This document shows, one piece after another, positions 2,322 to 32,031 of a DNA stretch of 35,641 bases (position 1 is the stretch's first letter; the number at the start of each line of letters is the position of its first letter). Origin of the DNA: Planctomycetota bacterium (GTDB lineage Bacteria > Planctomycetota > Planctomycetia > Pirellulales > Pirellulaceae); assembly GCA_036124135.1 (NCBI GenBank), contig JAZADA010000342.1, forward strand, positions 1 through 35,641, in the 5' to 3' direction. The notes under the pieces were generated by a model that ran no database searches, was not told the DNA's origin, and saw only the letters and a program-made list of their open reading frames with translations. Both the position numbers and the translations under genes were made by a program.

Positions 2322-2767
2322 GGGGGAGGTTCTTTCCAGGGAGTCCTTCGAAACGTCCGCATATTATAGACGAAACGAGCGTTGCAGTAACGGATTCCCA
2401 GCGCAAACCGTGGGACGTTATGAAAAGAGAGTGAAAAGTCGTGTAGGCTGTCTGACCGGATGTTTTGCAAACACAGGTGAATAGCGATGGTTGCTGTGGG
2501 TGACGATTTCACTTACGGCAATGGATCGATTTTGAGGGGGTTGGTACCGCTAGCGAAACCAGTCGGCATCGGTTCCCAGGGGAATTTCGATACGGCTACC
2601 GGCTGCAGGTCCATAAAAACACCGCTGGTCCCCCTATTTACCCTATTCTTTTAGCGCCAATCTGGAGTCGTGTTGATTGTAACCATCGCCGATATAAACT
2701 ATACATTAAGTTCTCTTGATGGGTTCTTGGAGCTCAATTGGTCTTGTTGACGGAGATTGGATTCGTG

Positions 2768-4891
2768 ATGAAACAAATCATTGCCCCCATGACCATGCTG
2801 GTTGTATTTGGATCCGGTTTTTTGCACGCTGCTGAGACGCTGGATACGGTGCTGGCTGCTGAGAACAAGGATCGAGGCGTGACCCATGTCTCGGTTGGCA
2901 AGATCGACGACATGGCCTATTTGCGTCGCGTGAGTGTTGACCTGATTGGACGCATTCCAACCATTGCCGAGGTGGATGAATACCTGGCCTGGCCGCAGGC
3001 AAAGCGACGTGAATTGCTGGTTGACAAGTTGATTGCCAGTGATCGATTTGCAGATCGCTGGACCGTTTTCTTTGCAGACCTGTTGCGGTTGCGCAGCAAC
3101 GTGACAGGTGGTTCTGCATTGATCGCTTATGTTCACCAGGCCATTCAAAATGACTTACCTTACAACCAACTGGCATCCCGTTTGATTGCCACCAATGGCA
3201 AGGCTGGTCGAGTGCCCGAGGTTGGATTTATCCTGGGAGATAATGCGGATCCACTGGCGATGGCCAGTGTCACGTCCCAGGTTTTCCTGGGAGTACGGAT
3301 TGGTTGTGCCCAGTGCCATGACCATCCTTTTGATAAGTGGACACGCAAGGACTTTTACTCGGTCGCTGCTTACTTCGGAAAAACACGCCGTTACGAGAGC
3401 AACTTTACCCGTGCGGTCTACACGTCCGAGGGAAAACAGACCACGGTCCTGTGGCCTCCGGAGGACGAGGCAGATCCGGCGGATCGCCAGGCGCTGACTC
3501 CTTCCTTCCCGTTCACCATGATGGACAAGAAGGCCAAGCCGGCATTCATCGTGCGTTACGAGGCCCTGCTCCAGGAACGTGCAGCGAAGAAAGCCGCCAG
3601 CAAGGGAAAGGGGCCATCGCTGGATGCGTTGTTGGCCGATGCAGACAAGAAAGTCACGCAGGCTACCCGTGGTGATGTTGACCTGGGGCAGGACGAGGCC
3701 CGCAAGGAAATCAACAAGATCAATATCAAGGACAGCCTCTATCGTCCCAGCGAGTACCGGGAACAGCTGGCGGCGCTGATCACGAGTCCTCGGAATCGTT
3801 ATTTTTCCGAGGCCTTTGTGAACCGCGTCTGGAAGGAACTGGTCGGACGAGGGTTTGTTGAACCCGTGGATGATTTTCGAGCCGATAATCCGGCCAGTCA
3901 CCCGCGTACGCTCGGCCTGCTGGCTGATAATTTCGTGGCCAGTGGTTTCAGTTTTCGGCAGCTGGTGCGCACGATCATCCAGACGGACGCTTACCAGCTG
4001 AAACAGGTTCCTCGTGATGTGACGGAACTGGTTCAGGAAGAACTGGAAGCCGCCTTCCTGGCAACGCCCATGCGTCGAATGTACAGCGAGTCTCTTTATG
4101 ACAGCATCGTCACGGCAGGACACCTGTTCGACGTGAAGTACACGGCCGGTCAGAATGAGAGGGTGATCGAGCAGGAGATTCGCGTCTTGCTGGGTGGCGA
4201 GGACAAGACCCAGCCCGTGGCCCAGGCCATTATCGATGGTGCTGGAGAGGGTGATGCTGCCGAGATGAAAAAGATGAAGACGGCTGGTACAGCGACGCGA
4301 GCAGGTTACAAGCTGGAAGAAGCGATCGAACTGGATTTCGCCGCGCTGCTCAAGCCGGATGATGAAGTAAAGATCGATCGCATGCAGGTGAAAACCGCTG
4401 AAGAACTGGAAGCTGAGCGGATGGCCATGGAGCGAGTTGTCAGCCGACCTGGCATGAAATATGAAACGAAGATCGTCAAGCGAACGATTGATGATAATCC
4501 ACGGTTTAGTTCCTCCCTGCGGATGGCCAGTCCTGCCCCGATCGGGCACTTTGTGCGTGTTTTTGGGCAGACGTCCCGCAATGACCTGGGCGAAGCACGG
4601 AACCAGACTCCGTCGATGCGACAGGCCCTGATGATGCTCAACGGGCGCCTGACCCATGAAGCATCGCGCGTGGGTGACCTGGAACCAATCCATAAGTACC
4701 TGGCGGGCAAGCAACCCCGGTTGGATCAAGCGGTCAAGTTTGCTTACCGCGAGATCCTGACACGGGAGCCTTCCGCGGATGAAATGGCAAATGCCATGGA
4801 TATCCTGCAAGGGGCAAAGACCGCCACGGATGGCATGGCTGATTTGCGATGGGTTTTACTCAACAGTAATGAGTTTCGCTTTCTGCCGTGA
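2768..4891 (+). CDS. Secreted DUF1549 (PSCyt2) + DUF1553 (PSD1) protein
   Basis: The ORF track opens at 2738. I prefer the ATG at 2768 because it yields a signal peptide (MKQIIAPMTMLVVFGSGFLHAAE). DUF1549 strings: VSVDLIGRIPT, ASDRFADRWTVFFADLLR, CAQCHDHPFDKWTRKDFY. DUF1553-type tail: FSEAFVNRVWKELVGRGFVEPVDDF, QALMMLNG, LLNSNEFRFLP. Confidence 0.92.
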   Translation: MKQIIAPMTMLVVFGSGFLHAAETLDTVLAAENKDRGVTHVSVGKIDDMAYLRRVSVDLIGRIPTIAEVDEYLAWPQAKRRELLVDKLIASDRFADRWTVFFADLLRLRSNVTGGSALIAYVHQAIQNDLPYNQLASRLIATNGKAGRVPEVGFILGDNADPLAMASVTSQVFLGVRIGCAQCHDHPFDKWTRKDFYSVAAYFGKTRRYESNFTRAVYTSEGKQTTVLWPPEDEADPADRQALTPSFPFTMMDKKAKPAFIVRYEALLQERAAKKAASKGKGPSLDALLADADKKVTQATRGDVDLGQDEARKEINKINIKDSLYRPSEYREQLAALITSPRNRYFSEAFVNRVWKELVGRGFVEPVDDFRADNPASHPRTLGLLADNFVASGFSFRQLVRTIIQTDAYQLKQVPRDVTELVQEELEAAFLATPMRRMYSESLYDSIVTAGHLFDVKYTAGQNERVIEQEIRVLLGGEDKTQPVAQAIIDGAGEGDAAEMKKMKTAGTATRAGYKLEEAIELDFAALLKPDDEVKIDRMQVKTAEELEAERMAMERVVSRPGMKYETKIVKRTIDDNPRFSSSLRMASPAPIGHFVRVFGQTSRNDLGEARNQTPSMRQALMMLNGRLTHEASRVGDLEPIHKYLAGKQPRLDQAVKFAYREILTREPSADEMANAMDILQGAKTATDGMADLRWVLLNSNEFRFLP

Positions 4892-4946
4892 TCATAGACG
4901 ACGATGTAATTAAACTTTGTGCGACGACGATAGCGTTAACACGAAC

Positions 4947-4952
4947 GAGGAG
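4947..4952 (+). promoter_or_regulatory. Shine-Dalgarno-like GAGGAG upstream of the DUF1501 gene
   Basis: GAGGAG lies 9 nt upstream of the ATG at 4962. Confidence 0.5.
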
Positions 4953-4961
4953 AATTGATTC

Positions 4962-6215
4962 ATGGGATGTAATGAATACAAGCTAAGCCGACGCGCCATG
5001 ATGGGTGCCACAGGTGCATCGTTGCTGGGATTGAGTATTCGCGACCTGCTGGCTTTTGCCGGTAAGGATCACGCGGCCAAGGCCGAGCACGTGATTCTCT
5101 TCTGGAACGGTGGGGGAATGTCCCATATCGATACCTGGGATCCGAAGCCAGGCCGTCCGACCCAGGGTGAGTTCGATCCGATTTCCACCTCCGTACCGGG
5201 GATCCAGATCTCGGAGATTTTCCCGAAGTTGTCCAAGCAGATGCATCATGCGGCATTGATTCGATCCATCGCCGGTACCCAGGGTGCCCATGGACGAGCT
5301 ACTTACAACCTGCAGACCAGTTACCTGCCTGGCGCCAACCTGCGTCACCCGGGTGTCGGTTCAGTCGTGGTTCACGAACTGGAAAACCAGAGCGATCTAC
5401 CTCCCTACGTGACGATCAGTGGACAGGCCCCGCGGGCCAGTTACCTGGGCCAGCAGTGCGAGGCCTATTACGTTGCGGCCCCGGGTGAAAAAGATCCCTA
5501 CCTGGCATTCCCGGAAGGAATCGCCAAGGTCCGTGGTGATCGCCGACTGGAAGAACTGGCAAAATTCAACAAGGGTTTCAAGGGGCGTTCCAAGGACAGT
5601 CGACTGGCCGCCACGCAGACATCGATTAACGAAGCGGTGCGATTGATGCGTAGCCCGGCGCTGGAAGCCTTTGCCCTGGACAAGGTGAAACCTGCGACGA
5701 TTGAACGTTACGGGGATACGAACTTTGGTCGCGGTGCCCTGCTGGCTCGCAGGCTGGTAGAGACGGGTGTCCGGTTTGTCCAGGTGAATCGCGGCGGATT
5801 TGATACGCACAGTAACAATTTCCCGGCCATGACCTCGCACGGTGAAGTCATGGATCCGGCATTGGCCTCGCTGATCGAGGACCTCCAGGAGACAGGCATG
5901 CTGGAGAAAACCCTGGTGCTCATGTTGAGTGAGTTCGGTCGTACGCCCCGAGTCAACGATAATGCTGGTCGGGATCACTGGCCAGGCGTTTTCAGTTGCT
6001 TCATGGCGGGCGGCGGCATCAAGGGTGGCCAGGTCATCGGTTCTTCCGATGAAGATGGAGCGATGCCCAAGGATCGCCCCGTCGAGGTGGCCAGCATTCA
6101 TGCAACATTATGTCATGCACTAGGTATTAATCACGACAAGGAAGTCATGACGCCCCTGCAGCGTCCTATGAAACTGGTAGATAACGGGAAGCCCGTTATG
6201 GAACTGTTTGGCTAG
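4962..6215 (+). CDS. DUF1501-domain protein (sulfatase/alkaline-phosphatase-like fold) with a Tat-type signal
   Basis: 417-aa ORF with a twin-arginine-like N-terminus (SRRAMMGATGASLLGLS). DUF1501 strings: FWNGGGMSHIDTWDPKP, RFVQVNRGGFDTHSNNF, LSEFGRTPRVNDNAGRDHWP, AGGGIKGGQVIGSSD. It starts 70 nt after the DUF1549/1553 gene, which is the classic planctomycete gene pair. Confidence 0.93.
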   Translation: MGCNEYKLSRRAMMGATGASLLGLSIRDLLAFAGKDHAAKAEHVILFWNGGGMSHIDTWDPKPGRPTQGEFDPISTSVPGIQISEIFPKLSKQMHHAALIRSIAGTQGAHGRATYNLQTSYLPGANLRHPGVGSVVVHELENQSDLPPYVTISGQAPRASYLGQQCEAYYVAAPGEKDPYLAFPEGIAKVRGDRRLEELAKFNKGFKGRSKDSRLAATQTSINEAVRLMRSPALEAFALDKVKPATIERYGDTNFGRGALLARRLVETGVRFVQVNRGGFDTHSNNFPAMTSHGEVMDPALASLIEDLQETGMLEKTLVLMLSEFGRTPRVNDNAGRDHWPGVFSCFMAGGGIKGGQVIGSSDEDGAMPKDRPVEVASIHATLCHALGINHDKEVMTPLQRPMKLVDNGKPVMELFG

Positions 6216-6258
6216 TTCGCCTGCCAGTTGGATTTGATACAATAGATTGGTTTTACGG

Positions 6259-6301
6259 AAAAACCTGGCATGACCACGTGGGTGGTCTGCCAGGTTTTTT
6301 T
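6259..6301 (+). terminator. Rho-independent terminator after the DUF1501 gene
   Basis: The left arm CCTGGCATGACCAC (6264-6277) pairs with GTGGTCTGCCAGG (6282-6294), leaving one bulged T and a GTGG loop. An A-run precedes the hairpin and seven Ts follow it (6295-6301). It lies 44 nt after the stop codon at 6213-6215. Confidence 0.8.
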
Positions 6302-6342
6302 GACGAATAGTTACTTCCGGACAAGCAAGGTTTCAAGGTTCT

Positions 6343-8748
6343 ATGACACGTTCAAGTATCGTTATTGCGTTGGCTGCCTGGTTGGTTTTCCCAGCTTGCG
6401 GTGGAATGGTTCAGGCCCAGGAAGAAGCCCCTGCGAAACCCGTGTTGCGAGGTTCGCTCGTGGAAGATCGCGCTGCTCGACAACTGGTCGAGGCAGGGGA
6501 TGCACGGCTGGATGCCAGTGAAACGGAAAAAGCACTGGAACTCTGGAGATCGGTGATCGAAAGGTATCCGCGCAGCCGCGTACGCTACACGGCTCACATG
6601 CGGCTGGGTAGCTATTACCTGGACCGGGAACGTGACTATGATCGTGCACGAACTCACTTCGAGGCCGTTAGTTCAGAAGAAAATCGAGATGATACCCAGC
6701 GTGCCGATGCCACGCTCAATGTCGGAGTCTGTCATTACCATGGGAGACTTTATGGTAAGTGCTTCCAGGTCATGCGTGGTGTGATCGAGGAGTTCCCGGT
6801 CAGCGCCCAGGTAAACCAGGCCTACTATTATATCGGGCTCGGACATTTCCAGCAGGGACACTACAGTCGCGCTATCGAGGCCCTCGAGAAAGTAGGCACC
6901 ACGCTGACGGATGAAGACAGCAACAATGGTAAGCTCGAAGCCGGCAAACGATTTTTTATCAAGATCGAAGATGCGGACCTGGCGGTACTTGATGCCGAGG
7001 ACAGCATCACCGTGATCTGTAAGTCGAGCAATGGTGACAGCGAGAAGGTTCCGTGTTTCCCGGTAGGGCGTAACGTGCGCGTGGTACTGGGGTCGATCAT
7101 GACACAACTGGGAGTGCCGCAGCCTGGTAACGGAATGTTGGAGGTCAAGGGCGGTGACAAGATCCAGGTCTTGTATACCGATGCACACACCGAGGATAAG
7201 AAGGTTGACCGGGAAGTGATCTCCGAGGTGATCGTCGTTGGAGATGGTATCGTGCAGATCAAGGATGGAGCCTACCGGGAGAGCCTCAACGGAGTGGTAC
7301 TCGGCAAGACCGTGAATATCGAGATCAGTGACGCGGATCGTGATGTGACCGAGAAAGCCGATACCATCAAGGCCACGGTCGCAATTTATCGACGTAAGAC
7401 CGAAGAAGAAGTCGAGGCGGAAATGGCAGCCCAGGTGGCCAAGGACGGGGTACCTGATGAGGCCCAGCCGGCTCCCAAGCCTGCCGAGGCCACTGCGGTT
7501 GATGATTTGCCGTTGCTGGCAGAGGAAAAAAAGATCGATCCATTCAAACGTATTGAAACGTTTGACATTACGTTGACGGAGGCCGTTGTCGAGCGCAAGC
7601 TCCCAGTGATTTCGGAGCCGGCACCGGCCGAAAAGGAAGCAGACACGCCCGTGAAGGTAGGGGAGGCCGCTTCGGATCCGCCCGTCGAGGAAAAACCAGC
7701 GACCCCCGTTCCACCGCCGTCCAATGCGATTCACACGGGCATCTTTCGTACCACGGTTTCCGTTGTGCGTAACGAGAAAGCCCTGGGTGATGCCATCCTG
7801 CAGGCGTTACCTGGTGACGAGGTCCGTATTACTTACCAGGACCAGTTAAACACGGGTGAAGGAGTCCAGGCCGTAGCAGCCAAGGGACGTTGCCTGGAAG
7901 GAAATATCGGTGGTGTACGCGTCACCCGTGTATTGATATCGGACGAGGAATTGCGGGTCCAGACCCAGTTGAAGACAGCAGATGCGCTGACCAGGATCGC
8001 CAACCGCTACAAGGAATTTGGACTCAAGGAAAAGGCCAAGGATAAATATCGCCAGGCCCTGGATGTCTGTGAAGAGGTGATGCCCGATGTCCAGAAATTA
8101 CGGGGGCGATTGCTCGAGGAGACTTACGTCCAGCTCTGGCATGTCTATTTTGAAATGGATCAACTTAACCTGGCCGCTGCCATGTGCGCACGTCTGCAAC
8201 GCGAGTTTCCCTCCAGTGGTTTTGTCGATGATGCGCTCCTGCAACTGGCCGATGTGGCACGGGCCGAGGGAGATCTAAATCGATCAATCGGTATCTACAC
8301 GCGTTTGGTGAACATGAAGACCAGCCAACTGCGCGGCGAAGCCCAGTTTGGTATCGCGGAATGTTTCGAGGCCATGACCAAGGCGCAGACCAGCGAAGCC
8401 GGGATCGCCCAGATGCGAGACCGTGCATTCCAGGAATACAAGAAAGTCTATGATCGATTTCCGGAAAGTGGTCGCGTGGGTGAGGCGGTTGCCAAGATGG
8501 CCTCCCACTACTACGACCAGAAGGATTATGCCCGCGCTATTGATACCTTTGAAACGGTCCTCGAGAGCCACCCGGATGCTCGCTTCCTGGATGTCATTCT
8601 CTTTAACTATGGCCGCTGCCTGTATCGCATGAATCGCCAGGGACAGGCACGCAGGCGATTCGAACAATTGATTGGTGATTTTCCGGAAAGCCAGCTGGCA
8701 CCGGATGCCAAGAAAATTGCCGAGGCATTAATCAAGTCAGGATTTTGA
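6343..8748 (+). CDS. Secreted TPR protein with a central beta-repeat region (TPR - repeats - TPR)
   Basis: 801-aa ORF with a signal peptide (MTRSSIVIALAAWLVFPACGGMVQAQE). The N- and C-terminal regions show YbgF/BamD-like TPR periodicity, for example RYPRSRVRYTAHMRLGSYY, EFPSSGFVDDALLQLADV and DFPESQLAPDAKK. The central part holds two copies of the repeat module also found in the next gene. An acidic/proline-rich linker sits between them. Confidence 0.9.
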   Translation: MTRSSIVIALAAWLVFPACGGMVQAQEEAPAKPVLRGSLVEDRAARQLVEAGDARLDASETEKALELWRSVIERYPRSRVRYTAHMRLGSYYLDRERDYDRARTHFEAVSSEENRDDTQRADATLNVGVCHYHGRLYGKCFQVMRGVIEEFPVSAQVNQAYYYIGLGHFQQGHYSRAIEALEKVGTTLTDEDSNNGKLEAGKRFFIKIEDADLAVLDAEDSITVICKSSNGDSEKVPCFPVGRNVRVVLGSIMTQLGVPQPGNGMLEVKGGDKIQVLYTDAHTEDKKVDREVISEVIVVGDGIVQIKDGAYRESLNGVVLGKTVNIEISDADRDVTEKADTIKATVAIYRRKTEEEVEAEMAAQVAKDGVPDEAQPAPKPAEATAVDDLPLLAEEKKIDPFKRIETFDITLTEAVVERKLPVISEPAPAEKEADTPVKVGEAASDPPVEEKPATPVPPPSNAIHTGIFRTTVSVVRNEKALGDAILQALPGDEVRITYQDQLNTGEGVQAVAAKGRCLEGNIGGVRVTRVLISDEELRVQTQLKTADALTRIANRYKEFGLKEKAKDKYRQALDVCEEVMPDVQKLRGRLLEETYVQLWHVYFEMDQLNLAAAMCARLQREFPSSGFVDDALLQLADVARAEGDLNRSIGIYTRLVNMKTSQLRGEAQFGIAECFEAMTKAQTSEAGIAQMRDRAFQEYKKVYDRFPESGRVGEAVAKMASHYYDQKDYARAIDTFETVLESHPDARFLDVILFNYGRCLYRMNRQGQARRRFEQLIGDFPESQLAPDAKKIAEALIKSGF
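6940..7862 (+). repeat. Two protein-level copies of the 'DxDxD...G-F...GDxVxxxYxD' beta-module in the 801-aa protein (about 6940-7195 and about 7303-7862)
   Basis: Copy a reads FFIKIEDADLAVLDAEDSITVICKSSNGDSEKV...LEVKGGDKIQVLYTDAHTED. Copy b reads VNIEISDADRDVTEKADTIKATV...[about 110-aa E/P/A-rich insertion]...NAIHTGIFRTTVSV...LPGDEVRITYQDQLNT. Coordinates are approximate. Confidence 0.6.
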
Positions 8749-8818
8749 TAGCACGCCGCTACCCTTGTTTCCTCCCCGAACCATTCTTGCGTGAAAATAA
8801 CTTACAGGGCTTAAACTT

Positions 8819-17559: not shown

Positions 17560-18003
17560 ATGAAAGAGCGTCGTCGACGAAAATTACTGGCAGAACCACC
17601 GGCGAGTGCCACCGGTGATATTGCCTTTAACCTGATCGTGTTTTTCCTGGTTTGTGCCTCGGTGCAACCGGATAGTGGGCGCGAGCAGACACTGCCACGA
17701 AGTGAAGAAGAGGAAAACCAGCAGCAACCCGCTGAGAATATTAAAGTGCAACTGACACGTGATGCCGTCTATCTTAACGGGAGCGTGATGCCTCCTGCTG
17801 ACTTCCCAGGTAACTTTCGGCAAGGTCTTAGTCGGGCCCTGTCCAAGGCCACCCGGCAGTCGGATCGTGTCGTGGTGGTCAAGAGTAAACCAGAGACTCC
17901 TTACTCCTATTGGATTACGATTACCGAGTTGATCGAACAGGCGGGCGGGGTCGTGACCATCCAGCGTGAAGAAGAAGAAGAAGTCATCGTCCCTGGGACC
18001 TAA
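17560..18003 (+). CDS. ExbD/TolR-family protein (paralog 1)
   Basis: 147-aa ORF starting 3 nt after the ExbB-like stop. The N-terminus has a basic stretch followed by a TM segment with the conserved Asp (ATGDIAFNLIVFFLVCA; D20 codon at 17617-17619). The periplasmic domain (IKVQLTRDAVYLNG...VVVVKSKPETPYSYWITITELIEQAGG) matches the family fold pattern. It ends in an acidic tail (REEEEEVIVPGT). Confidence 0.88.
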   Translation: MKERRRRKLLAEPPASATGDIAFNLIVFFLVCASVQPDSGREQTLPRSEEEENQQQPAENIKVQLTRDAVYLNGSVMPPADFPGNFRQGLSRALSKATRQSDRVVVVKSKPETPYSYWITITELIEQAGGVVTIQREEEEEVIVPGT

Positions 18004-18007
18004 CGCA

Positions 18008-18013
18008 GAGGAG
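18008..18013 (+). promoter_or_regulatory. Shine-Dalgarno-like GAGGAG for the second ExbD gene
   Basis: GAGGAG lies 6 nt upstream of the ATG at 18020. This supports 18020 over the track start at 17966. Confidence 0.6.
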
Positions 18014-18019
18014 AACCTG

Positions 18020-18424
18020 ATGAAAATCAAGCGTCGTTCTTCCCAGGCGGAAGTACCCAGCATGGCGATGGGAGATATTGCCTTTAACCTGCTGATTTTT
18101 TTCGTGATCCTGGCGCGTGCCGAGGATGACAGCCACTTGCACTGGGAGCCCGCCGTGGCCACGGAGATCACGGCGTCCGGAGCCGCGCGGGTGGCAGTAT
18201 TAATTGATAGTGATAACAAGTTTTACGTGAATGGTCAGCAAGTCGGAGAGTCCCAGCTGGCTGGCGAGATTGATGCACTACTGGGCGATGCACCGGCCGG
18301 TGAACGCGTCGTACTGTTAAAAGCGCACAAGGATGCCCAGGCCATGTACTTTGAGCCCGTGATCGAGGCGATTAGTGAAAAAGGCGGGGACCTGGTGCAC
18401 GTACTTGAACAAAGGCAGGAATAA
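18020..18424 (+). CDS. ExbD/TolR-family protein (paralog 2)
   Basis: I prefer the start at 18020 (MKIKRRSSQAEVPSMAMGDIAFNLLIFFVILA), which retains the conserved TM Asp. Periplasmic domain: VAVLIDSDNKFYVNGQQV...VVLLKAHKDAQAMYFEPVIEAISEKGG. The track start at 17966 would overlap the upstream gene and add a poly-Lys leader. Confidence 0.88.
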   Translation: MKIKRRSSQAEVPSMAMGDIAFNLLIFFVILARAEDDSHLHWEPAVATEITASGAARVAVLIDSDNKFYVNGQQVGESQLAGEIDALLGDAPAGERVVLLKAHKDAQAMYFEPVIEAISEKGGDLVHVLEQRQE

Positions 18425-18427
18425 ATC

Positions 18428-18907
18428 ATGAATGATACAGGACAATCGGATCATCGACCTGGCGGCAGCGGCATAGGTCGCGATCTGCGTTCGGTACGAG
18501 ACAATGGGACCGCTTCCCTGCACGAGCTGCGGGAATTTATCACCCAGCTGAAAGGCCGCCGCCCCCAGGAGGTGATGGGAATCGTGACCGGGAATGGCCT
18601 GGTGCAGGGTGTCATGATCTCGACAGCCAGTTTCGTTGTGCTCCTGCTGCTCTTTACGGCAATCCCGTTTTTCATGCCTGGTAAGGAACCCGTGGCTGAC
18701 AAGGCAACGGCTCCTGCGGCCAAGGCAGAAGCAACTCAGTCCACGGGCCAGACGCAGGCGGATAACAAGGAACAGGAGCAGGCCGGGGCAAAGACGGCTG
18801 GAGAAAATGTCTCGAATGCACTTGGCATCGGGGAAACGAAGGCCTCCAGCCTGGAAGAGAATCCCTTAGAAAACAAACTGGATAACCTGCTGGACGACGT
18901 GGAGTAA
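18428..18907 (+). CDS. Single-pass membrane protein with an A/K/E/Q-rich low-complexity ectodomain (TolA/TonB position, no TonB C-terminal domain)
   Basis: 159-aa ORF starting 3 nt after the ExbD2 stop. It has one hydrophobic segment (VMISTASFVVLLLLFTAIPFFM). This is followed by ADKATAPAAKAEATQSTGQTQADNKEQEQAGAKTAGE...LENKLDNLLDDVE. I recognise no family. Confidence 0.7.
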   Translation: MNDTGQSDHRPGGSGIGRDLRSVRDNGTASLHELREFITQLKGRRPQEVMGIVTGNGLVQGVMISTASFVVLLLLFTAIPFFMPGKEPVADKATAPAAKAEATQSTGQTQADNKEQEQAGAKTAGENVSNALGIGETKASSLEENPLENKLDNLLDDVE

Positions 18908-18921
18908 CAGGAACCCTGGTC

Positions 18922-20403
18922 ATGTCATTACCGACCTTGCGAAATCGAAACGAGCTCGGAGGCGCCATCCTGGTTGGCCTCGTCTGGGCTGCCATCGTCA
19001 TTGATTGGCTGTGGGTTTTGATGCTGCCGTCGATAATCCAGTATTCGCTGCTGGGAGCGATTGCCATCGCCAGCATGGCCTGGTTGATACGATGCTATTT
19101 CGTCCACGGTGCCAGAACTCCCTGGTTCTGGGTGGTTTTCACGATCACGTTTCCCGTCTTCTGGCAGTTCCTGCTTTACAATGCAGACCAGTTTGATTTC
19201 GAATTGCTGCGCAGTTACGTGGCACGTACGGGCCTGGTGATGCTGTTCCTCATCGGACTGCTGTGGAATATCTGGGGCGTGGAACAGATTGCCCAGCGCA
19301 TCGAGTCGGAACGTCGCCAGTACCAGGAGTTTGACCTCCAGGAAGTACTGCAGCAGAAGCAGCGCATCACGAAAGTTGATACCTGGAATCCGTTTGATCC
19401 GGCGGCCTGGTATTACGGTCGCAAGTCGCCGCGGTTGAACCAGTCCGTGTCTGGCTTCGTTACCTATAGCTACCTGTTTATCATGGTCTGCATGATCTTG
19501 AGCCAGGTGAGAGGCTGTACCCGGTATTACGATTTACCGGCCGGGGGTGGAGAGCAGCAGACCGTGGCCCAGGTCGTGAAGGTCCAGAAAATTATCCGCA
19601 AGAAATTCGTTGTGAATCCTTACAGCGCCATCCTGTTTGATATCCCGGAAATTGATGAGGTCAAGCTGGAGTTGAACGAGGCGACTGCGCACCAGTACAA
19701 GATCGGTTACGGGGAAGGTGAAGGCGCGGGATTCGCCGGGGGGACCTCCAAGGGCGTGGTCGCTCTCTATCGGCTGGAATATCCCGGTGGTGACTGGGAC
19801 CAGGACTTTGGTATCGGTGGTGACATGAACATGTTGATCAAGTACCAGGAGTTGACATCCCAGAAAATTGACAAGCAAACCAGGGCGGTGACGCCAGCGC
19901 AACTGGGAACCTTTGACACGATTCGTTGTCCACCCCTCATCTATATTACGGGCCAGGGTACGATTTCCCTGGGCAAGAATGATATCAAGATCTTGAAGGA
20001 CTATATCAATAACAAGCATGGTATGCTGTTCGGAGATAATGGGGGCAGCAAGCATTTCGACAGACAGTTCAAGAGTATGATGCAGGCGATTGCACCTGAT
20101 GTGAAACCGGTACTGATTCCAGCGGATGACAAGATCCATCGAGTGCCGTTTACGATTCCCAAGTTTCCTTACGTGGCACCGCACGGTGGCACGCAGGCAA
20201 TGGGATGGTTCAAGGACGGACGCTGGATCTGTTACTACCATCCCGGGGATATCGGAGATGCCTGGGCGGATGGCCACGCTGGTATTGCGCCCGAGGTATG
20301 GAACATGTGTTACCGACTGGGAGTGAATGTTATTAATTATGCCCATGCCGAGCATGCCAAGTGGCGCATGGCACAAGCCAAAAAGAAGGGTGACAAGGGA
20401 TGA
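18922..20403 (+). CDS. Polytopic membrane protein with a C-terminal DUF4159-like domain
   Basis: 493-aa ORF with about five N-terminal hydrophobic helices (ILVGLVWAAIVIDWLWVLML, LLGAIAIASMAWLI, WFWVVFTITFPVFWQFLLY, GLVMLFLIGLLWNIWGV, FVTYSYLFIMVCMIL). The C-terminal region matches the DUF4159 pattern: PPLIYITGQGTISLGKNDIKILKDYINNKHGMLFGDN, FDRQFKSMMQAIAPDVKPVLIPADDKIHRVPF, YYHPGDIGDAWADGH, YRLGVNVINYA. Confidence 0.85.
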   Translation: MSLPTLRNRNELGGAILVGLVWAAIVIDWLWVLMLPSIIQYSLLGAIAIASMAWLIRCYFVHGARTPWFWVVFTITFPVFWQFLLYNADQFDFELLRSYVARTGLVMLFLIGLLWNIWGVEQIAQRIESERRQYQEFDLQEVLQQKQRITKVDTWNPFDPAAWYYGRKSPRLNQSVSGFVTYSYLFIMVCMILSQVRGCTRYYDLPAGGGEQQTVAQVVKVQKIIRKKFVVNPYSAILFDIPEIDEVKLELNEATAHQYKIGYGEGEGAGFAGGTSKGVVALYRLEYPGGDWDQDFGIGGDMNMLIKYQELTSQKIDKQTRAVTPAQLGTFDTIRCPPLIYITGQGTISLGKNDIKILKDYINNKHGMLFGDNGGSKHFDRQFKSMMQAIAPDVKPVLIPADDKIHRVPFTIPKFPYVAPHGGTQAMGWFKDGRWICYYHPGDIGDAWADGHAGIAPEVWNMCYRLGVNVINYAHAEHAKWRMAQAKKKGDKG

Positions 20404-22022
20404 TCAAGCAGAAATTCACGGGATGGATGATTCTCGCCGCGATACTGGTATTGCCATCTTCGCTGCAGGCGCAGAAAAACCTGGAAATCATGTCCCTGGA
20501 ACGCTGGGCCAAGCTGCGAGAGGTGGAACGGTACCAGCTGAATATTGCCGAGAAGTATTACAAGGAAGGGAAATATAAGGTCGCCCTGACCGAGTACGAG
20601 AAATACCTGGCACTCTACGAACGAAGCGAGGCGGCTCCCTATTCCCAGTTGAAGTGGAGTCTTTGCCTGAACCAGTTACGTCGCCAGAACACGGCGATCA
20701 AGGAAGGCTTCCAGTCGGTGATCGACTATTGGCCTGATGCTCCCGAAGCAGCCAAGGCGTCGTACTTGATGAGCCGGACCTACGTGACCATTGGTCGTAT
20801 TCCCACGGCCAAGAAAGCGTACCAGCGGACGATCACCGATTATCCCAAGGATCCCGTGGCGGTCTATTCGCTCAATGGGTTGGCGGAGATCGCGATCGCG
20901 GAAAAAGATGAAAAGAGCCTGCTCAAGATCCGCAAACGCCTGGTCTTTGATATCCCGCGCAACAAGGCCGTGGCAGGGACCTGTGCCACGGCAGCGACTT
21001 CGCTGGCCGGCTATTACTTTGCCAAGGGGATGTTTGATGATGGCCTGAAGTGCCTGGCAACCAATTACAAGGACAAGCAACTGACCTACTACGTTTATTA
21101 CTACGTCCGTTCTCCGATCAGCACACTGGTGGGAAAGGAAGAAACCCAGGCGCTGGGTCACAAGTTGGCAGATCGGTCGGTGGCTCACCTGAAAGCAGAT
21201 TTTATCACCGACTATTCCACCGAGGAACTCAAGAAAGCGGCCATGACGGAATGGTACCAGCTGATCGCAGTCGAGATGAGCGCGCGGCGAGATGACAAGG
21301 TGCTGGCCGCCTATAACACGATGCTCAAGGTCTTTGGTTCCAGTGATGAAGTCCTGGGACGGCTGGGTGACTACCATGCAGGGCAGCTGCGTTACGAACA
21401 GGCTCGCGCGATTTACCGGAAGTTCAAGGATCAGGTCCAGGGACTATCCAGGATTGCGGCCAGTTACCGAGGTGAAAAGAAACCGGCCGAGGCGATCAAG
21501 ATTTACCAGCAATTGGCAGGCCAGGATCGAGAAAATGCAGCTTCCTGGAAAGGACAGCAAGCTGCTACCTACCGGGAATCCAGTCAGTATCCAGAAGCGA
21601 TCAAGGTTTACCGGGAATTGCTCCAGTCCGACGCTGCGAACGTGCAGACCTGGCTCTGGGCACTGGCCACCACGCAAGAGGATGCCGGGTTGCTCAAGGA
21701 AGCCATTGGGGCTTATCGGCAGTGTGATAATTTCCCAAACAATTACAGGGAGATGGCTGATTGCCACCTGCGTTTGAAGCAGTACAACGAAGCCCTCGTT
21801 CTCTATAACCAGATCCGCCAGGGGCATGAAGCCTCTGCTCCCTGGGCCCAGTTGCAGATTGGCTATACCTATGAAAAGCTCAAGGCCACGGAACCAGCTA
21901 TCAAGGCGTTTCAATTGTGTTGCAAGAAATACCCTACCGCCTCGTCAGCCAGCAAGGCCCACGCGCATTTGCAGAACAAGTACAAGATTTCAGTGACTCT
22001 CGGTGGCGCTACCAAGGAGTAA
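20400..22022 (+). CDS. Secreted TPR-repeat protein
   Basis: 540-aa ORF whose ATG overlaps the upstream TGA (ATGA at 20400-20403). It has a signal peptide (MIKQKFTGWMILAAILVLPSSLQAQ). TPR-like periodicity runs throughout, for example AEKYYKEGKYKVALTEYEKYLALY, DYWPDAPEAAKASYLMSRTY, DYPKDPVAVYSL and MADCHLRLKQYNEALVLYNQI. Confidence 0.9.
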   Translation: MIKQKFTGWMILAAILVLPSSLQAQKNLEIMSLERWAKLREVERYQLNIAEKYYKEGKYKVALTEYEKYLALYERSEAAPYSQLKWSLCLNQLRRQNTAIKEGFQSVIDYWPDAPEAAKASYLMSRTYVTIGRIPTAKKAYQRTITDYPKDPVAVYSLNGLAEIAIAEKDEKSLLKIRKRLVFDIPRNKAVAGTCATAATSLAGYYFAKGMFDDGLKCLATNYKDKQLTYYVYYYVRSPISTLVGKEETQALGHKLADRSVAHLKADFITDYSTEELKKAAMTEWYQLIAVEMSARRDDKVLAAYNTMLKVFGSSDEVLGRLGDYHAGQLRYEQARAIYRKFKDQVQGLSRIAASYRGEKKPAEAIKIYQQLAGQDRENAASWKGQQAATYRESSQYPEAIKVYRELLQSDAANVQTWLWALATTQEDAGLLKEAIGAYRQCDNFPNNYREMADCHLRLKQYNEALVLYNQIRQGHEASAPWAQLQIGYTYEKLKATEPAIKAFQLCCKKYPTASSASKAHAHLQNKYKISVTLGGATKE

Positions 22023-22040
22023 TCTCCAGAAGGATTTACA

Positions 22041-22571
22041 ATGCCCAGATCACTTTCCTGGTTACTGGTGGTATTACTGTTGGCCATCGCTGGCGTGGTC
22101 GGCCTGTGGACCTCGCAGCGTGCCCATCGTTACTACTATCCGGATATTCCCAGCGAGTTATATACAGGCACCGATTTTCCCCTCGATCGTGAGTTCGAGA
22201 GAACCGGACGCTATGAGATCAGTTGCGATGCAGCCCTGGATGATGTGATTTTCAAAGTTGTCGCGGAAAAAACGGGAGCAGCCGTCGAGGTGCATGAATT
22301 CAACTTCTGGACCCGCTTGTGTCATACCAGTGAATACCGTGGATATGGGTTTTCCATCGAGCAGCCGGGGCTTTACGAACTGACAGCTTCGTCGTTGCCA
22401 GCTGGGACCGAAGTGCATTTTGGTTTCGTGGATACCCCTGCCATCGCTCGGTGGATGTATATCGGGATTCTTCTCGGATCCAGCCTGGCTGGACTGGCCT
22501 TCCTGCTGCTCTATGGACTGATGATAGGGAGCCTGCCAGCGCAGGACCTCACACCACCTCCCGTTGAATAA
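22041..22571 (+). CDS. Small bitopic membrane protein of unknown function
   Basis: 176-aa ORF starting 18 nt after the TPR gene. It has an N-terminal TM segment (LSWLLVVLLLAIAGVVGLW) and a C-terminal TM segment (WMYIGILLGSSLAGLAFLLLYGLMIG). These flank a beta-looking domain of about 110 aa. I recognise no family. Confidence 0.65.
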   Translation: MPRSLSWLLVVLLLAIAGVVGLWTSQRAHRYYYPDIPSELYTGTDFPLDREFERTGRYEISCDAALDDVIFKVVAEKTGAAVEVHEFNFWTRLCHTSEYRGYGFSIEQPGLYELTASSLPAGTEVHFGFVDTPAIARWMYIGILLGSSLAGLAFLLLYGLMIGSLPAQDLTPPPVE

Positions 22572-24334: not shown

Positions 24335-25858
24335 ATGCGAAGTTTCCTGAGTGGTTTGTTGCTGGCCCTGCTGGTTGGTTGTGGTTCGCAAAATAGTGAC
24401 GAACAGGTAAACAACCCGGCGGGCCAGGTGAATGTCCCTGCGAAACTGACGGCCGAGCAGGCCGAGATGATCCTGTCCATGAAAGTTGGTCAATGGGAAA
24501 TTGAACACCTCGTGGAACGGGACGGATCGAATCCGTTTCCTAGCCAGGAGATCCTGCTGGGTCGCTGGAAAGAGAAGGGGAAATCGGTGGAGGCTGTCGG
24601 CCACGATTTCGGTAAGGACCTCCTGTATTTCTTCGAGATGATTCACGATCAGGATCTCGGCGTGGTAGTCGGCAAGATCACTTTGAGCAATGGCAGGGAG
24701 ATGGTTAAGCACTACTCGTGGGATGAGTCTACCAAGACGATTCGGATCAACATGGCCAAACCGACCAGCCTCGATGGTAAAAAATATTCCGTGGTCGTGG
24801 ACCGCCTGGATAAAGATACATTTACTGGCAAAGTGACCGTGACGGAGGATGGCAAAACGATTGGCACCCAGTCCTCTCGGGGTCAGCGGTTTGGGCCGGC
24901 CTCCGATAAGGAATTCGAGGATTTCAAGCAGCTGTTCCGATCGGAATCAACCGGTGTGTCGATGGAACCGAGTCAGCCCGACGTGGTTGCTGAGGATGAG
25001 GAGATCCCGGACTTTCCAGACAAGAAGATGACGGCCCAGCAGGCCCGGGAAAGCCTGGCGCGGGGTGTTGGCCAGTTCCAGGGACAAGGGACGAGGGGAC
25101 CGGTCAATGGAGAGCAGGTTGCCACGCGAGACAACTGGCAGGCACGTTTGGTTGCCGGGGAAATTGCTGCTGAAATTGTCGGACGGTTTGAAAGTGAGAA
25201 CCAGGAAATCCTGTACCAGGGCAACATTCACTACGACGAACAACTGGGACTGTTGGTACTGCAATATGCCGATTCTGCGGGTCTTGAACGGACGGAGCAT
25301 TATTACTCGGATCCCATAACCGGCAGGAGTTATGTCCGGTCCGTTGCTCCGGCATTGCCCCCGGGAGTTTCCGTCAAGCAAATTCGTGATGAAGGTGAGG
25401 ATGGCCATGGAAAAGGCAAGGTACAGGTGACACAGGATGGAAAGCTGGTGTTTCGAGTCCAGTATGCGTTCGAGAAGATTGGCCCGGTTGACGGTCGGCA
25501 GTTTGAAAAAATGTTGGCCGAACAGGAGCAGGCCATGGAAGCGCTGAAGTCCAACAAGCTGGCCTTCGTTCCGTACACGACGCGGGACGCACTCCCCGGT
25601 TCCCGCGGCAACAAGGATGTTCGGATCGTGTTTCAGAATGATTTAGAGAACGTCATCAAGTACTGGTACGTTGAGGGAGAGGAAAATAAGCTGTACGGAG
25701 AAATGCAGCCAGGTGAACGCAGGCCGCAGCAGACTTTTACCGGTCATGTCTGGTTGATCACGGACGAGGATGATAAGCCGTTGGGATACTTCATTGCCGG
25801 TGGTGTTGATGCCACGGCCCGTATCGTGCCGGTGAAACCGGCTGGGAATCCCGAGTAG
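24335..25858 (+). CDS. Lipoprotein with two tandem homologous modules and a VHL-beta-domain-like C-terminus
   Basis: 507-aa ORF with a lipobox (LLLALLVGCGSQ). The internal duplication covers about 24446-24902 and about 25028-25483. Matching strings are TAEQAEMILSMKVGQW / TAQQARESLARGVGQF and GKVTVTEDGK / GKVQVTQDGK. C-terminus: VRIVFQNDLENVIKYWYVEGEENKLYGEMQPGERRPQQTFTGHVWLITDEDDKPLG. Confidence 0.85.
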   Translation: MRSFLSGLLLALLVGCGSQNSDEQVNNPAGQVNVPAKLTAEQAEMILSMKVGQWEIEHLVERDGSNPFPSQEILLGRWKEKGKSVEAVGHDFGKDLLYFFEMIHDQDLGVVVGKITLSNGREMVKHYSWDESTKTIRINMAKPTSLDGKKYSVVVDRLDKDTFTGKVTVTEDGKTIGTQSSRGQRFGPASDKEFEDFKQLFRSESTGVSMEPSQPDVVAEDEEIPDFPDKKMTAQQARESLARGVGQFQGQGTRGPVNGEQVATRDNWQARLVAGEIAAEIVGRFESENQEILYQGNIHYDEQLGLLVLQYADSAGLERTEHYYSDPITGRSYVRSVAPALPPGVSVKQIRDEGEDGHGKGKVQVTQDGKLVFRVQYAFEKIGPVDGRQFEKMLAEQEQAMEALKSNKLAFVPYTTRDALPGSRGNKDVRIVFQNDLENVIKYWYVEGEENKLYGEMQPGERRPQQTFTGHVWLITDEDDKPLGYFIAGGVDATARIVPVKPAGNPE

Positions 25859-27150: not shown

Positions 27151-27768
27151 CTACTTGGAGGCGGCCAGCTTAAACACCTTTTCGGCCAGTGACATCAACT
27201 CTTTAAGCGACTCATCGGTTCGCTTAAAGTCGTGGGATAACTTGACGATTCGTTGCTCGGAATAAACGAACTTGAGTTCGGTGCGATCATCAAAGAGGCG
27301 ACTGCGTCCGTCACGTGAACGAGACATCGACACGTCGATGTGCTTGAGGTTACTGGATTTCGCATGAAATTCGATGGTGTTGAACACTTGCTTGCTCTGG
27401 TTGAGTTCACCGTTGAACAGTGACTTGTGAATTACGATGTAGGTTTTGATCTGTGGATGTTTCTCCAGTGCCCGATCCAGTTGCTGCAGGAGATCCCAGA
27501 GGTGCTTGTTATTGTTGCGAGCGTAAATACTAATCGCCTTTTCTTTTCGATAGACGCCTGCCAGGCAGGTGTTGTTTCCGTTGAGCCTGGGGAATGTTGG
27601 TGAAACAACCACCCAGGTAGTTGTTGTTGGAACATAGTTAGATAGGTCGGTTCCATAGACGCGAGCAGGTTTTGTTACTGGAGTTGGCTCTTGTGACTGA
27701 AGATGGGCAGGAAACAACAGACAACAGGTGGAGAAAAAGATTTGCAGCAGGTGTCGTGATTCCGACAT
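27151..27768 (-). CDS. Secreted hypothetical protein (orphan)
   Basis: 205-aa ORF with a signal peptide (MSESRHLLQIFFSTCCLLFPAHLQSQE). I recognise no family. By eye it is visibly more AT-rich than its neighbours. Confidence 0.65.
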   Translation of the reverse strand: MSESRHLLQIFFSTCCLLFPAHLQSQEPTPVTKPARVYGTDLSNYVPTTTTWVVVSPTFPRLNGNNTCLAGVYRKEKAISIYARNNNKHLWDLLQQLDRALEKHPQIKTYIVIHKSLFNGELNQSKQVFNTIEFHAKSSNLKHIDVSMSRSRDGRSRLFDDRTELKFVYSEQRIVKLSHDFKRTDESLKELMSLAEKVFKLAASK

Positions 27769-31967: not shown

Positions 31968-32031
31968 ACATTTACGTGTAAGAAAAATGAGATCGTGAGT
32001 GCCTGGGCACCGCGGAGCAGGAGAAGAGGTT

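Follow-up and report, generated by a model that had tools for sequence, protein, structure and literature searches.

To our knowledge, 5:2 motors of the ExbB/TolQ type are understood only through their TonB, TolA, flagellar, and Agl-Glt partners. A 35,641-nt stretch of Pirellulaceae DNA (contig JAZADA010000342.1, here called the window) raises the question of what such a motor might drive where the canonical partners are missing from its neighborhood. The window, the only part of its genome that was covered, carries nine consecutive plus-strand open reading frames (ORFs), g1 to g9, between 6343 and 22571. They include one ExbB-type gene (g3), two ExbD-type genes (g4 and g5), a small single-pass membrane protein (g6), a polytopic membrane protein with a DUF4159 domain (g7), and three secreted tetratricopeptide repeat (TPR) proteins (g1, g2, and g8). 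Pfam and NCBIfam scans found no TonB C-terminal domain, TolA domain III, TolB, Pal/OmpA, or TonB-dependent transporter (TBDT) among the window ORFs, as a sequence-only reading of the window had supposed. The best explanation, held with middling confidence, is a dedicated envelope machine driven by the proton-motive force (PMF), which belongs to the Ton/Tol/Agl-Glt class and has its own non-canonical partner set. Its most likely biological role is the energized coordination or tethering of envelope layers. This role is preferred because Planctomycetes are reported to be without pal and because none of their loci has been catalogued as Tol-Pal.

The strongest evidence comes from conservation. 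Relatives were sought in one genome per species, and 306 genomes contained one. The best 80 of these were examined and all belong to Planctomycetia (Pirellulales and Planctomycetales), the closest being a deep-sea Pirellulaceae metagenome-assembled genome (MAG) with 89% identity. The nine window proteins were mapped by tblastn, and for each gene only loci long enough for testing were counted. ExbD1 (g4) and ExbD2 (g5) were present in all testable loci (69/69 and 72/72), g6 in 72/73, and ExbB (g3) in 59/64, while the giant TPR protein g2 was found in 53/58 and g8 in 72/79. Five genes travel together as a core, namely ExbB, the two ExbD, the small single-pass protein, and the transmembrane (TM) DUF4159 protein. 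The TPR proteins are frequent but rearrangeable accessories of this core. Three loci (L030, L038, and L040) have the order ExbD-ExbD-g6-g7-g8 with no adjacent ExbB or giant, and two others (L055 and L072) have ExbB-ExbD-ExbD-g6-g7 without the giant or g8. Most of the related loci are MAG contigs, and the split giants in L087 and L088 may be assembly errors. At L086:22258-22325 (minus strand), an RNase_H_2-family gene follows ExbD2 instead of g6 and g7, which suggests an insertion or a split of the cluster.

The core is also found in four remote loci at 29-40% identity. L089 has the order ExbD, small protein, and FHA-DUF4159, and L094 has ExbB, ExbD, ExbD, a 157-aa protein, and DUF4159, with no giant. 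L093 begins with a 2577-aa giant and two TPR proteins, followed by ExbB, ExbD, ExbD, a 149-aa protein, and DUF4159. The order in L091 is a 2667-aa TPR giant, a 166-aa protein, ExbB, ExbD, ExbD, a 142-aa protein, DUF4159, a 662-aa protein, a second DUF4159, and a PA14 protein. In this last locus (70% GC), the 662-aa protein without a Pfam match, the shorter DUF4159 protein (303 aa), and the PA14 protein occupy positions 12005-16362 and replace g8. Among more distant matches, the g7 representative P0348 is labelled Lentisphaeria, and the labels Verrucomicrobiota, Akkermansiaceae, and Urbifossiella appear on pieces of the giant.

The sequence-only reading had treated the stator, TPR, and DUF4159 genes as one system. 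Their synteny with exbB-exbD-exbD in about 70 Planctomycetia genomes, and the presence of the core in remote relatives, bear this out, and the loss of synteny that would speak against a single system was not found. Two other parts of that reading did not hold. The giant had been taken as the output element of the motor, whereas it is absent from L030, L038, L040, L055, L072, and L094, while g6 and the DUF4159 protein are nearly always beside the ExbD pair. The giant is therefore not regarded as the output, because the obligate partners are g6 and the DUF4159 protein and the giant is dispensable in some loci. The operon had been counted as nine genes, of which eight are conserved. The last gene, g9 (22041-22571, plus strand), encodes 176 aa with hydrophobic segments at the N- and C-terminus and no family match at E ≤ 5. 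Among more than 80 loci it was found only in L005, the closest relative, at 76% identity, and other genomes have gidA, rpsB, or priA in its place. It is probably co-transcribed with the cluster in the window, and its non-conservation rules it out as a component of the system. At the other end, g1 lies directly upstream of the giant wherever its position is visible (L034, L073, L086, L087, L088, and L085 from the cultured Anatilimnocola floriformis). As g1 always adjoins the giant and its own upstream gene varies between genomes, the conserved operon is taken as g1-g8 (6343-22022).

The spacing of the genes is tight, as had been read from the sequence. ORF calling gave gaps of 70, 38 or 86, 3, 16, 3, 14, -4, and 18 nt, the second value depending on whether ExbB starts at a TTG (16513) or at ATG 16561. 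Ortholog alignment (about 60-70 orthologs) favors ATG 16561 for ExbB, and for ExbD2 it favors ATG 18020, which gives the 16-nt gap, over an alternative start at 17966. Both agree with the starts behind the 86-nt and 16-nt gaps of the sequence-only reading. The stop of g7 overlaps the start of g8 in an ATGA, and the two genes also overlap or abut in L001, L010, and L011. The strong terminator expected upstream of the cluster is present as an intrinsic hairpin with a U-run at 6256-6302 (plus strand), at the end of the upstream DUF1501 gene. Its folding energy is -33.7 kcal/mol (z = -8.8), none of 200 shuffled sequences folds equally well, and it marks the 5' boundary of the cluster. After g9, 129 nt are free of genes. 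No fold better than shuffled sequence was obtained for the internal gaps or for this downstream gap, and no internal terminator or structured RNA stood out in them.

The stator genes carry the family signatures that had been claimed for them. The g3 product (16561-17556, plus strand) matches PF01618 with 86.9 bits against a cut-off of 22.9. Besides the core of three TM helices, it has what looks like a cleavable signal peptide and an acidic periplasmic extension of low complexity. Its best NCBIfam match is TolQ (TIGR02796) with 95.5 bits against a cut-off of 221. The protein is equidistant from solved TolQ and ExbB structures, and was aligned to TolQ 8odt by HMMER. All 57 ExbB orthologs have Thr at the two pore positions in TM2 and TM3 that correspond to TolQ T145 and T178. 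The two ExbD/TolR-like subunits, g4 (17560-18003, plus strand) and g5 (18020-18424, plus strand), match PF02472 with 50.2 and 49.7 bits (cut-off 25.4), and the TolR equivalog TIGR02801 reaches 25.6 bits against a cut-off of 127.3. Both have the TM Asp in a GDIAFNL motif, and this residue is conserved throughout the alignments of 68 and 72 orthologs of the two paralogs. The subunits are only 28% identical to each other, so they form a heterologous pair. An anti-phage Zorya-like system was considered and rejected, as PADLOC gave only a 16.6-bit ZorA match on the shared MotA/ExbB core and nothing on the other genes.

The small protein g6 (18428-18907, plus strand) has 159 residues, an N-in single-pass topology, and no family match at E ≤ 5. 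A canonical TonB C-terminal domain or TolA domain III was sought in it, and none was detected at that threshold. An alignment of 71 orthologs contains a conserved cytoplasmic juxtamembrane motif, ELREFxxxLKGRSPQEVLG (18524-18580), a transmembrane helix (TMH; about 18599-18676), and a conserved C-terminal peptide, ALGIGETK..NPL...LDxLLDG (18815-18904). The periplasmic linker is variable, of low complexity, and rich in A, E, K, Q, and T. All versions of g6 end in a short acidic-hydrophobic peptide and have no globular domain. The distant counterparts (L089:532-1005, L091:9523-9951, L093:9524-9973, and L094:9509-9982) keep this layout and the acidic-hydrophobic C-terminus. In 4/4 of them the TMH has an invariant His within S/A-x3-H-V-x5-[L/T]-S-x-G-[F/Y], that is, a Ser-x3-His-x6-[Leu/Thr] helix. 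Ser-x3-His-x6-Leu is part of the SHLS motif by which TonB and TolA bind their motors (PMC12204202). The earlier label of TolA-like appears apt in this sense, as g6 resembles a head-less TolA/TonB in topology and layout, a likeness of motif and architecture only.

The second membrane partner, g7 (18922-20403, plus strand), is a polytopic inner-membrane protein of 493 aa, as anticipated. It matches PF13709 with 105.2 bits over model positions 2-201 of 202. Five TM helices (18922-19509, plus strand) are supported by prediction, an AlphaFold2 (AF2) model, and the alignment, and the loop charges fit an N-in, C-out topology. TM5 is the most conserved helix and holds most of the invariant membrane residues. 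It is followed by a very highly conserved segment, PAGGGEQQ..VVKVQKIIRKKFVVNPFSAI..GYGEGxGAGFAGGT (19510-19752, plus strand), and by the periplasmic DUF4159 domain (19765-20343, plus strand). In the AF2 model, which has a predicted local distance difference test score (pLDDT) of 71, the five helices are joined to a C-terminal alpha/beta domain. Residues 197-277, right after TM5, are among the most conserved of the protein, yet they are modelled with a pLDDT below 50. A segment that becomes ordered only on binding a partner would be expected to behave in this way. By analogy, TM5 and the post-TM segment may contact the stator or the periplasmic domains of ExbD, like the 'motor box' of TonB and TolA.

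The g7 domain superposes on 4i66 (Hoch_4089), the only solved DUF4159 protein (Foldseek E 8.4e-9, TM-score 0.80), and weakly on the glutamine-amidotransferase (GATase) domain 8hx9. No vWA structure was among the 50 Foldseek matches listed. The modelled DUF4159 domain is accordingly assigned a class I GATase-like fold and not a vWA fold. GATase catalysis is not proposed, since there is no invariant Cys and the nucleophile elbow reads GDNGGS by inspection. Homologs of g7 number 909 at E ≤ 1e-5, and the 120 listed are full-length and 47-91% identical, all those with an organism label being from Planctomycetota. TM5 and the post-TM segment (residues 160-285) were also searched against 1.84 billion cluster representatives, of which only 140 match. 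In 10/10 distant representatives scanned (29-41% identity), DUF4159 directly follows the conserved segment. The N-terminal regions of the distant relatives are variable and often far larger, and in one of them, P0375 (L089:1063-3651), the membrane region and DUF4159 are preceded by a cytoplasmic FHA domain (59.5 bits) at the N-terminus.

Each of the three TPR proteins has a Sec-type signal peptide and is rich in TPR repeats. In the g1 product (6343-8748, plus strand; 801 aa), TPR repeats at the N-terminus are followed by two beta-sandwich repeats of the DxDxD type (aa ~197-350) and then, at the C-terminus, by a TPR module of the YbgF/CpoB type that matches TIGR02795 with 106.9 bits (cut-off 90.1). 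The g1 protein has 1169 homologs, and the 120 listed are 59-99% identical, several being named 'TolA-binding protein' by JGI. In sequence, g1 is a reduced paralog of the giant with the same design. The giant itself, g2 (8819-16474, plus strand), has TPR and TIGR02795 matches. Of its 2551 aa, about 1230 at the N-terminus form a helical/TPR solenoid and about 1060 in the center an all-beta array, and the C-terminus is a YbgF/CpoB-like TPR module. This last module (aa 2325-2531; 15791-16411, plus strand) scores 123.6 bits against 90.1 for TIGR02795 and matches CpoB 6g5s and YbgF 2xev in the PDB. The 540-aa g8 protein (20400-22022, plus strand) has TPR matches, and its module is N-terminal and scores 68 bits, below the cut-off. 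The sequence-only reading had given these proteins CpoB/BamD-like TPR ends. This stands for the YbgF/CpoB module of g1 and g2 and not for g8, and the full-length models fail, with CpoB (NF008068) at 36 and 66.8 bits against 383 and BamD also below its cut-off. By these profile scores, g1 and g2 have the YbgF/CpoB module, yet the proteins are not CpoB orthologs.

The central all-beta region of the giant (aa 1240-2300; 12536-15718, plus strand; AF2 pLDDT 79.5) is a chain of about ten immunoglobulin (Ig)- or macroglobulin (MG)-like beta-sandwiches with recurring DxDxD...ETxxxSGxF motifs. Within it, profile matches mark a discoidin/CBM32-like domain (about 12872-13093, plus strand) and a CBM6/35-like domain (about 13630-14030, plus strand), where CBM denotes a carbohydrate-binding module. 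The F5/8 type C match is sub-threshold (24-26 bits against 28.2) and recurs in 17/20 orthologs, CBM_6 is matched in 3/20, and an ortholog profile of the region finds discoidin/CBM32 and CBM6/35 modules in the PDB. Foldseek matched the region to the Nitrosopumilus S-layer protein 8c8m (E 2e-21), the bacterial alpha-2-macroglobulin 4u48, and PorU 6za2, with low TM-scores (0.12-0.17) that reflect generic strings of Ig-like domains. The giant had been called lectin-like. Judged by these profiles, the term plausibly fits one or two domains, whereas most of the non-TPR part consists of Ig/MG-like sandwiches. The glycan binding ascribed to the giant is not upheld, as it was derived only from the weak discoidin and CBM matches.

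The partner set can be compared with several known systems, of which the nearest in gene order are the 'vWA force-transducer' clusters of the Planctomycetes-Verrucomicrobia-Chlamydiae (PVC) group, described by Williams-Jones et al. 2025, Mol Biol Evol (PMC12204202). These clusters have the order TPR, tolQ-like, two heterologous tolR-like, and transducer, which is common to this locus, and no mutant phenotypes are reported for them (PMC12204202). A single protein serves as their transducer, with a disordered linker between an SHLS TMH and a vWA domain at the C-terminus, while this locus has two genes, g6 and g7, in its place. Here, g6 has no globular domain and, in Planctomycetia, no His, and g7 has five TM helices and a GATase-like DUF4159 domain. 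The locus also has three TPR proteins, including the 2551-aa giant. Membership in the vWA-transducer family is ruled out, as the g7 domain is DUF4159/GATase-like and g6 is without a C-terminal domain. No functional study of DUF4159 or of this cluster was found in the literature, which was also searched for planctomycete ExbB/TolQ, crateriform/TonB, and R. baltica loci. The machine had been called undescribed, and this holds for its function, whereas the operon plan was anticipated by the PVC study (PMC12204202).

The Agl-Glt gliding machinery of Myxococcus xanthus, to which the locus had been likened, proved an apt comparison. It combines one TolQ-like and two heterologous TolR-like subunits with TPR pillars, and AglR5-AglQ-AglS has been modelled (PMC11761067). 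Similarly, the locus has one ExbB-type and two different ExbD-type genes, and the pentamer/heterodimer stoichiometry is predicted here from the genes alone. Both systems have single-pass inner-membrane proteins with disordered periplasmic segments, TPR pillars, a giant TPR protein, and an FHA domain on a membrane partner, which here occurs in one g7 relative (P0375). GltG has FHA domains on its cytoplasmic side and, in the periplasm, a disordered stretch that winds around the TPR pillar GltD (PMC11761067). For these two reasons, Agl-Glt is considered the closest characterized mechanistic analogue. In contrast, the window lacks the TonB-C-terminal-domain (CTD)-like domains of GltG and GltJ, the outer-membrane (OM) barrels GltA/B/H/K, and the CglB adhesin, and DUF4159 has no Glt counterpart. 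The giant is secreted and has a beta-sandwich/discoidin array, whereas GltI, the giant TPR protein of Agl-Glt, is cytoplasmic (PMC11761067). Family searches with the window TPR proteins gave only generic TPR matches and a weak Tgl match (23 bits against 225).

The locus resembles Tol-Pal in its TolQ/TolR-like motor, in a single-pass protein with a long linker like TolA domains I and II, and in TPR modules that pass the tol_pal_ybgF cut-off. It differs in the absence of TolA domain III, TolB, and Pal from the window, in a heterologous ExbD pair where Tol-Pal has a TolR homodimer, and in TPR proteins that are 3-10 times larger than CpoB. Planctomycetes are reported to have no pal and no catalogued Tol-Pal locus, with only a possible tolB in Aquisphaera (PMC12204202, supplementary information (SI)). 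With Ton it shares the ExbB/ExbD families, the essential TM Asp, the pore Thr ring, and, in the distant g6 counterparts, a TonB-like S-x3-H-x6-L helix. Unlike Ton, it has no TonB C-terminal domain (PF03544) or TBDT, g6 lacks the His, and the TM3 Glu of ExbB is replaced by Val. The g7 domain, which matches PF13709 end to end, is shared with the standalone DUF4159 protein (4i66, ~200 residues), whereas g7 adds five TM helices and the conserved module of TM5 plus linker. The locus lacks the defining features of the vWA-transducer family, Ton, Tol-Pal, and Agl-Glt, and is a novel partner set on a known 5:2 motor type.

A working mechanism can be drawn from these comparisons. Following the model of AglR5-AglQ-AglS, five ExbB subunits would make up the channel, and its pore would hold an ExbD1-ExbD2 heterodimer. 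The g6 protein would take the TolA/TonB role: its TMH would dock at the periphery of the stator, and the disordered linker would cross the periplasm. Its conserved acidic-hydrophobic C-terminal peptide, which replaces domain III, would latch onto a partner, for which there are two candidates: the DUF4159 domain of g7 and the TPR modules of CpoB/YbgF type in g1, g2, and g8. The TPR domain of E. coli CpoB binds TolA. The g7 protein would be the second obligate membrane partner, with TM5 and the post-TM segment as a candidate stator-contact or 'motor-box'-like element and the periplasmic GATase-like domain as a candidate docking head. The TPR proteins would form a periplasmic scaffold, from which the beta-sandwich/discoidin/CBM-like array may reach glycans of the peptidoglycan, the outer membrane, or the surface.

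Several observations weigh against a dedicated envelope machine of this kind. The locus encodes no outer-membrane component, so 'envelope-spanning' is unproven, and some genomes have the TPR genes apart from the core. The absence of TonB, TBDTs, and other partners covers the window, and such genes may lie elsewhere in the genome. Every contact in the scheme (g6 with the stator, the g6 peptide with TPR modules or DUF4159, and g7 with the stator) is drawn from synteny, topology, and analogy. Co-transcription of the cluster is predicted. The end of the terminator hairpin is 40 nt from the first ATG (6303-6342), and no sigma-70-like site was found on the plus strand. With so little room, the promoter would overlap or precede the hairpin, or the operon would rely on read-through.

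Two residues weigh on the same side. The TM3 Glu of ExbB and TolQ is functionally important in both E. coli proteins. In g3, the position of E. coli TolQ E173 and ExbB E176 is Val (~17390-17400). Among the 57 ExbB orthologs it is V in 43, E in 9, T in 3, L in 1, and Q in 1, and the Glu is kept in three distant stators. Likewise, the His of the g6 TMH is missing from the window protein and from all 71 Planctomycetia orthologs. A profile of the four His-bearing g6 relatives gave no significant TolA or TonB match among PDB sequences, and g6 is therefore not claimed as a true TolA/TonB homolog. The likeness is kept at the level of the motif because the Planctomycetia proteins lack the His and the PDB profile search was blank. 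These replacements suggest that the Planctomycetia branch altered two residues usually deemed central to motor function or transducer binding. Co-variation of the two losses is not supported, as L003 has the Glu and lacks the His.

A bolder form of the proposal would make the system a functional replacement for Tol-Pal in Planctomycetia and the wider PVC group. Planctomycetes divide without FtsZ. The tail-less TolA-like tether and its DUF4159 partner would load force onto the giant TPR/beta-sandwich scaffolds. That force would couple the two membranes and the peptidoglycan while cells bud or divide independently of FtsZ and while an enlarged, invaginated periplasm is maintained. This extension is speculative and rather unlikely as it stands.

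Among the rival explanations, the most credible is an energized capture or uptake of macromolecules, in which the motor pulls the CBM/discoidin array of the giant, or g7, and drags polysaccharides into or through the enlarged periplasm, as a Ton-like import without a barrel. Energy-dependent uptake of dextran is known in planctomycetes, and the discoidin/CBM32-like and CBM6/35-like matches recur in orthologs of the giant. Besides the core, the variant L091 has genes for a PA14 protein and another DUF4159 protein, and L094 lies among heparinase, sulfatase, and polysaccharide-deacetylase genes. These matches are nevertheless weak, falling below Pfam cut-offs in the window, and some genomes have the conserved core but do without the giant that bears them. 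The locus has no transporter or outer-membrane pore, and its flanking genes vary and are mostly of housekeeping and not of polysaccharide-utilization type. Uptake is considered unlikely.

An Agl-Glt-like surface machine is improbable. It would move an adhesion or surface-structure complex (fibers, holdfast, or crateriform-associated structures) along or across the envelope. The stator plan of one TolQ-like and two different TolR-like subunits is the same (PMC11761067), the TPR pillars and giant TPR protein have their parallels, and the FHA domain of one g7 relative recalls GltG. The other Glt elements are missing from the locus, which has no GltA/B/H/K-type barrels, CglB-like adhesin, or TonB-CTD proteins, and the secreted giant contrasts with the cytoplasmic GltI. 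The resemblance of its array to S-layer proteins in the fold search favors a surface structure, but the TM-scores are low (0.12-0.17). We know of no report of gliding in these bacteria.

It is more improbable still that the cluster serves trans-envelope sensing or regulation, in which the stator and g6/g7 would signal the state of the envelope inward, by way of the g6 cytoplasmic motif and the FHA domain of a g7 relative, instead of acting on the envelope mechanically. The conserved juxtamembrane motif of g6 and the N-terminal FHA domain of P0375 are consistent with such a device, although the FHA domain is limited to one distant branch. In R. baltica, salt stress induces the exbB and exbD genes RB12053 and RB12055 (PMC2754498), which are possible orthologs of the stator genes here. 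A signalling role would not account for the lack of a kinase, sigma/anti-sigma factor, or DNA-binding partner in the locus, and more than 3,800 residues of secreted scaffold suggest a structural role.

Least credible, and very doubtful, is an ordinary Ton/Tol stator that energizes a TonB or TolA encoded elsewhere and merely adjoins the TPR, g6, and g7 genes. In its favor, tonB and exbBD are frequently not linked (PMC12204202), TolQ and ExbB resemble the stator to the same degree, and the gene content is known from the window only. Against it, g6 and g7 adjoin the ExbD pair in about 70 genomes, and they still do so at 29-40% identity in remote lineages whose TPR genes are rearranged, which is not expected of unrelated neighbors. 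The spacing is also of the translational-coupling type, and Planctomycetes are reported without pal or a catalogued Tol-Pal locus (PMC12204202 SI).

The genes around the cluster are planctomycete hallmarks, namely pairs of PSCyt2/PSD1 and DUF1501, a PSCyt1-WD40 protein, and PhoD. The PSCyt2/PSD1 and DUF1501 genes that immediately precede g1 form an orthologous pair in the window (2738-6215), L086 (L086:6167-9716), and L087 (L087:3154-6725). Its DUF1501 protein is 70% and 63% identical to those of L086 and L087, respectively, against 35% to the second DUF1501 copy of the window itself, and in L087 the gene ends 5 nt from g1. Neither L085 nor L088 has this pair before g1. In L088, a metagenomic contig, Mu-like phage genes at L088:505-3453 (major capsid, Gp36, and portal) precede the g1 ortholog by a few kb and probably represent an unrelated prophage. 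Downstream of the cluster, two minus-strand ORFs of the window, 24335-25858 (507 aa) and 27151-27768 (205 aa), have no significant family match, the first having a weak match to a VHL beta-domain (E 0.0011). At 31999-34824, a 941-aa protein combines a PSCyt1 cytochrome c domain with a WD40 beta-propeller and lies beside another DUF1501 and PSCyt2/PSD1 pair.

The locus provides a highly conserved parts list, a five-gene core with TPR scaffolds, for how planctomycetes energize or coordinate their unusual envelope. The system recurs in at least 306 species-level genomes, a cultured strain included. Its composition suggests a new transducer design, in which an anchor of the TolA/TonB type ends in a short peptide and the globular head is on a separate membrane protein. 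The loss of the SHLS His and of the stator TM3 Glu are two natural experiments that bear on models of transducer grip and proton conduction. If the system does replace Tol-Pal, it would represent a third major class of force transducer beside TonB/TolA and the proposed vWA proteins, with its globular head supplied in trans. It may show how bacteria without Tol-Pal power their cell envelope.

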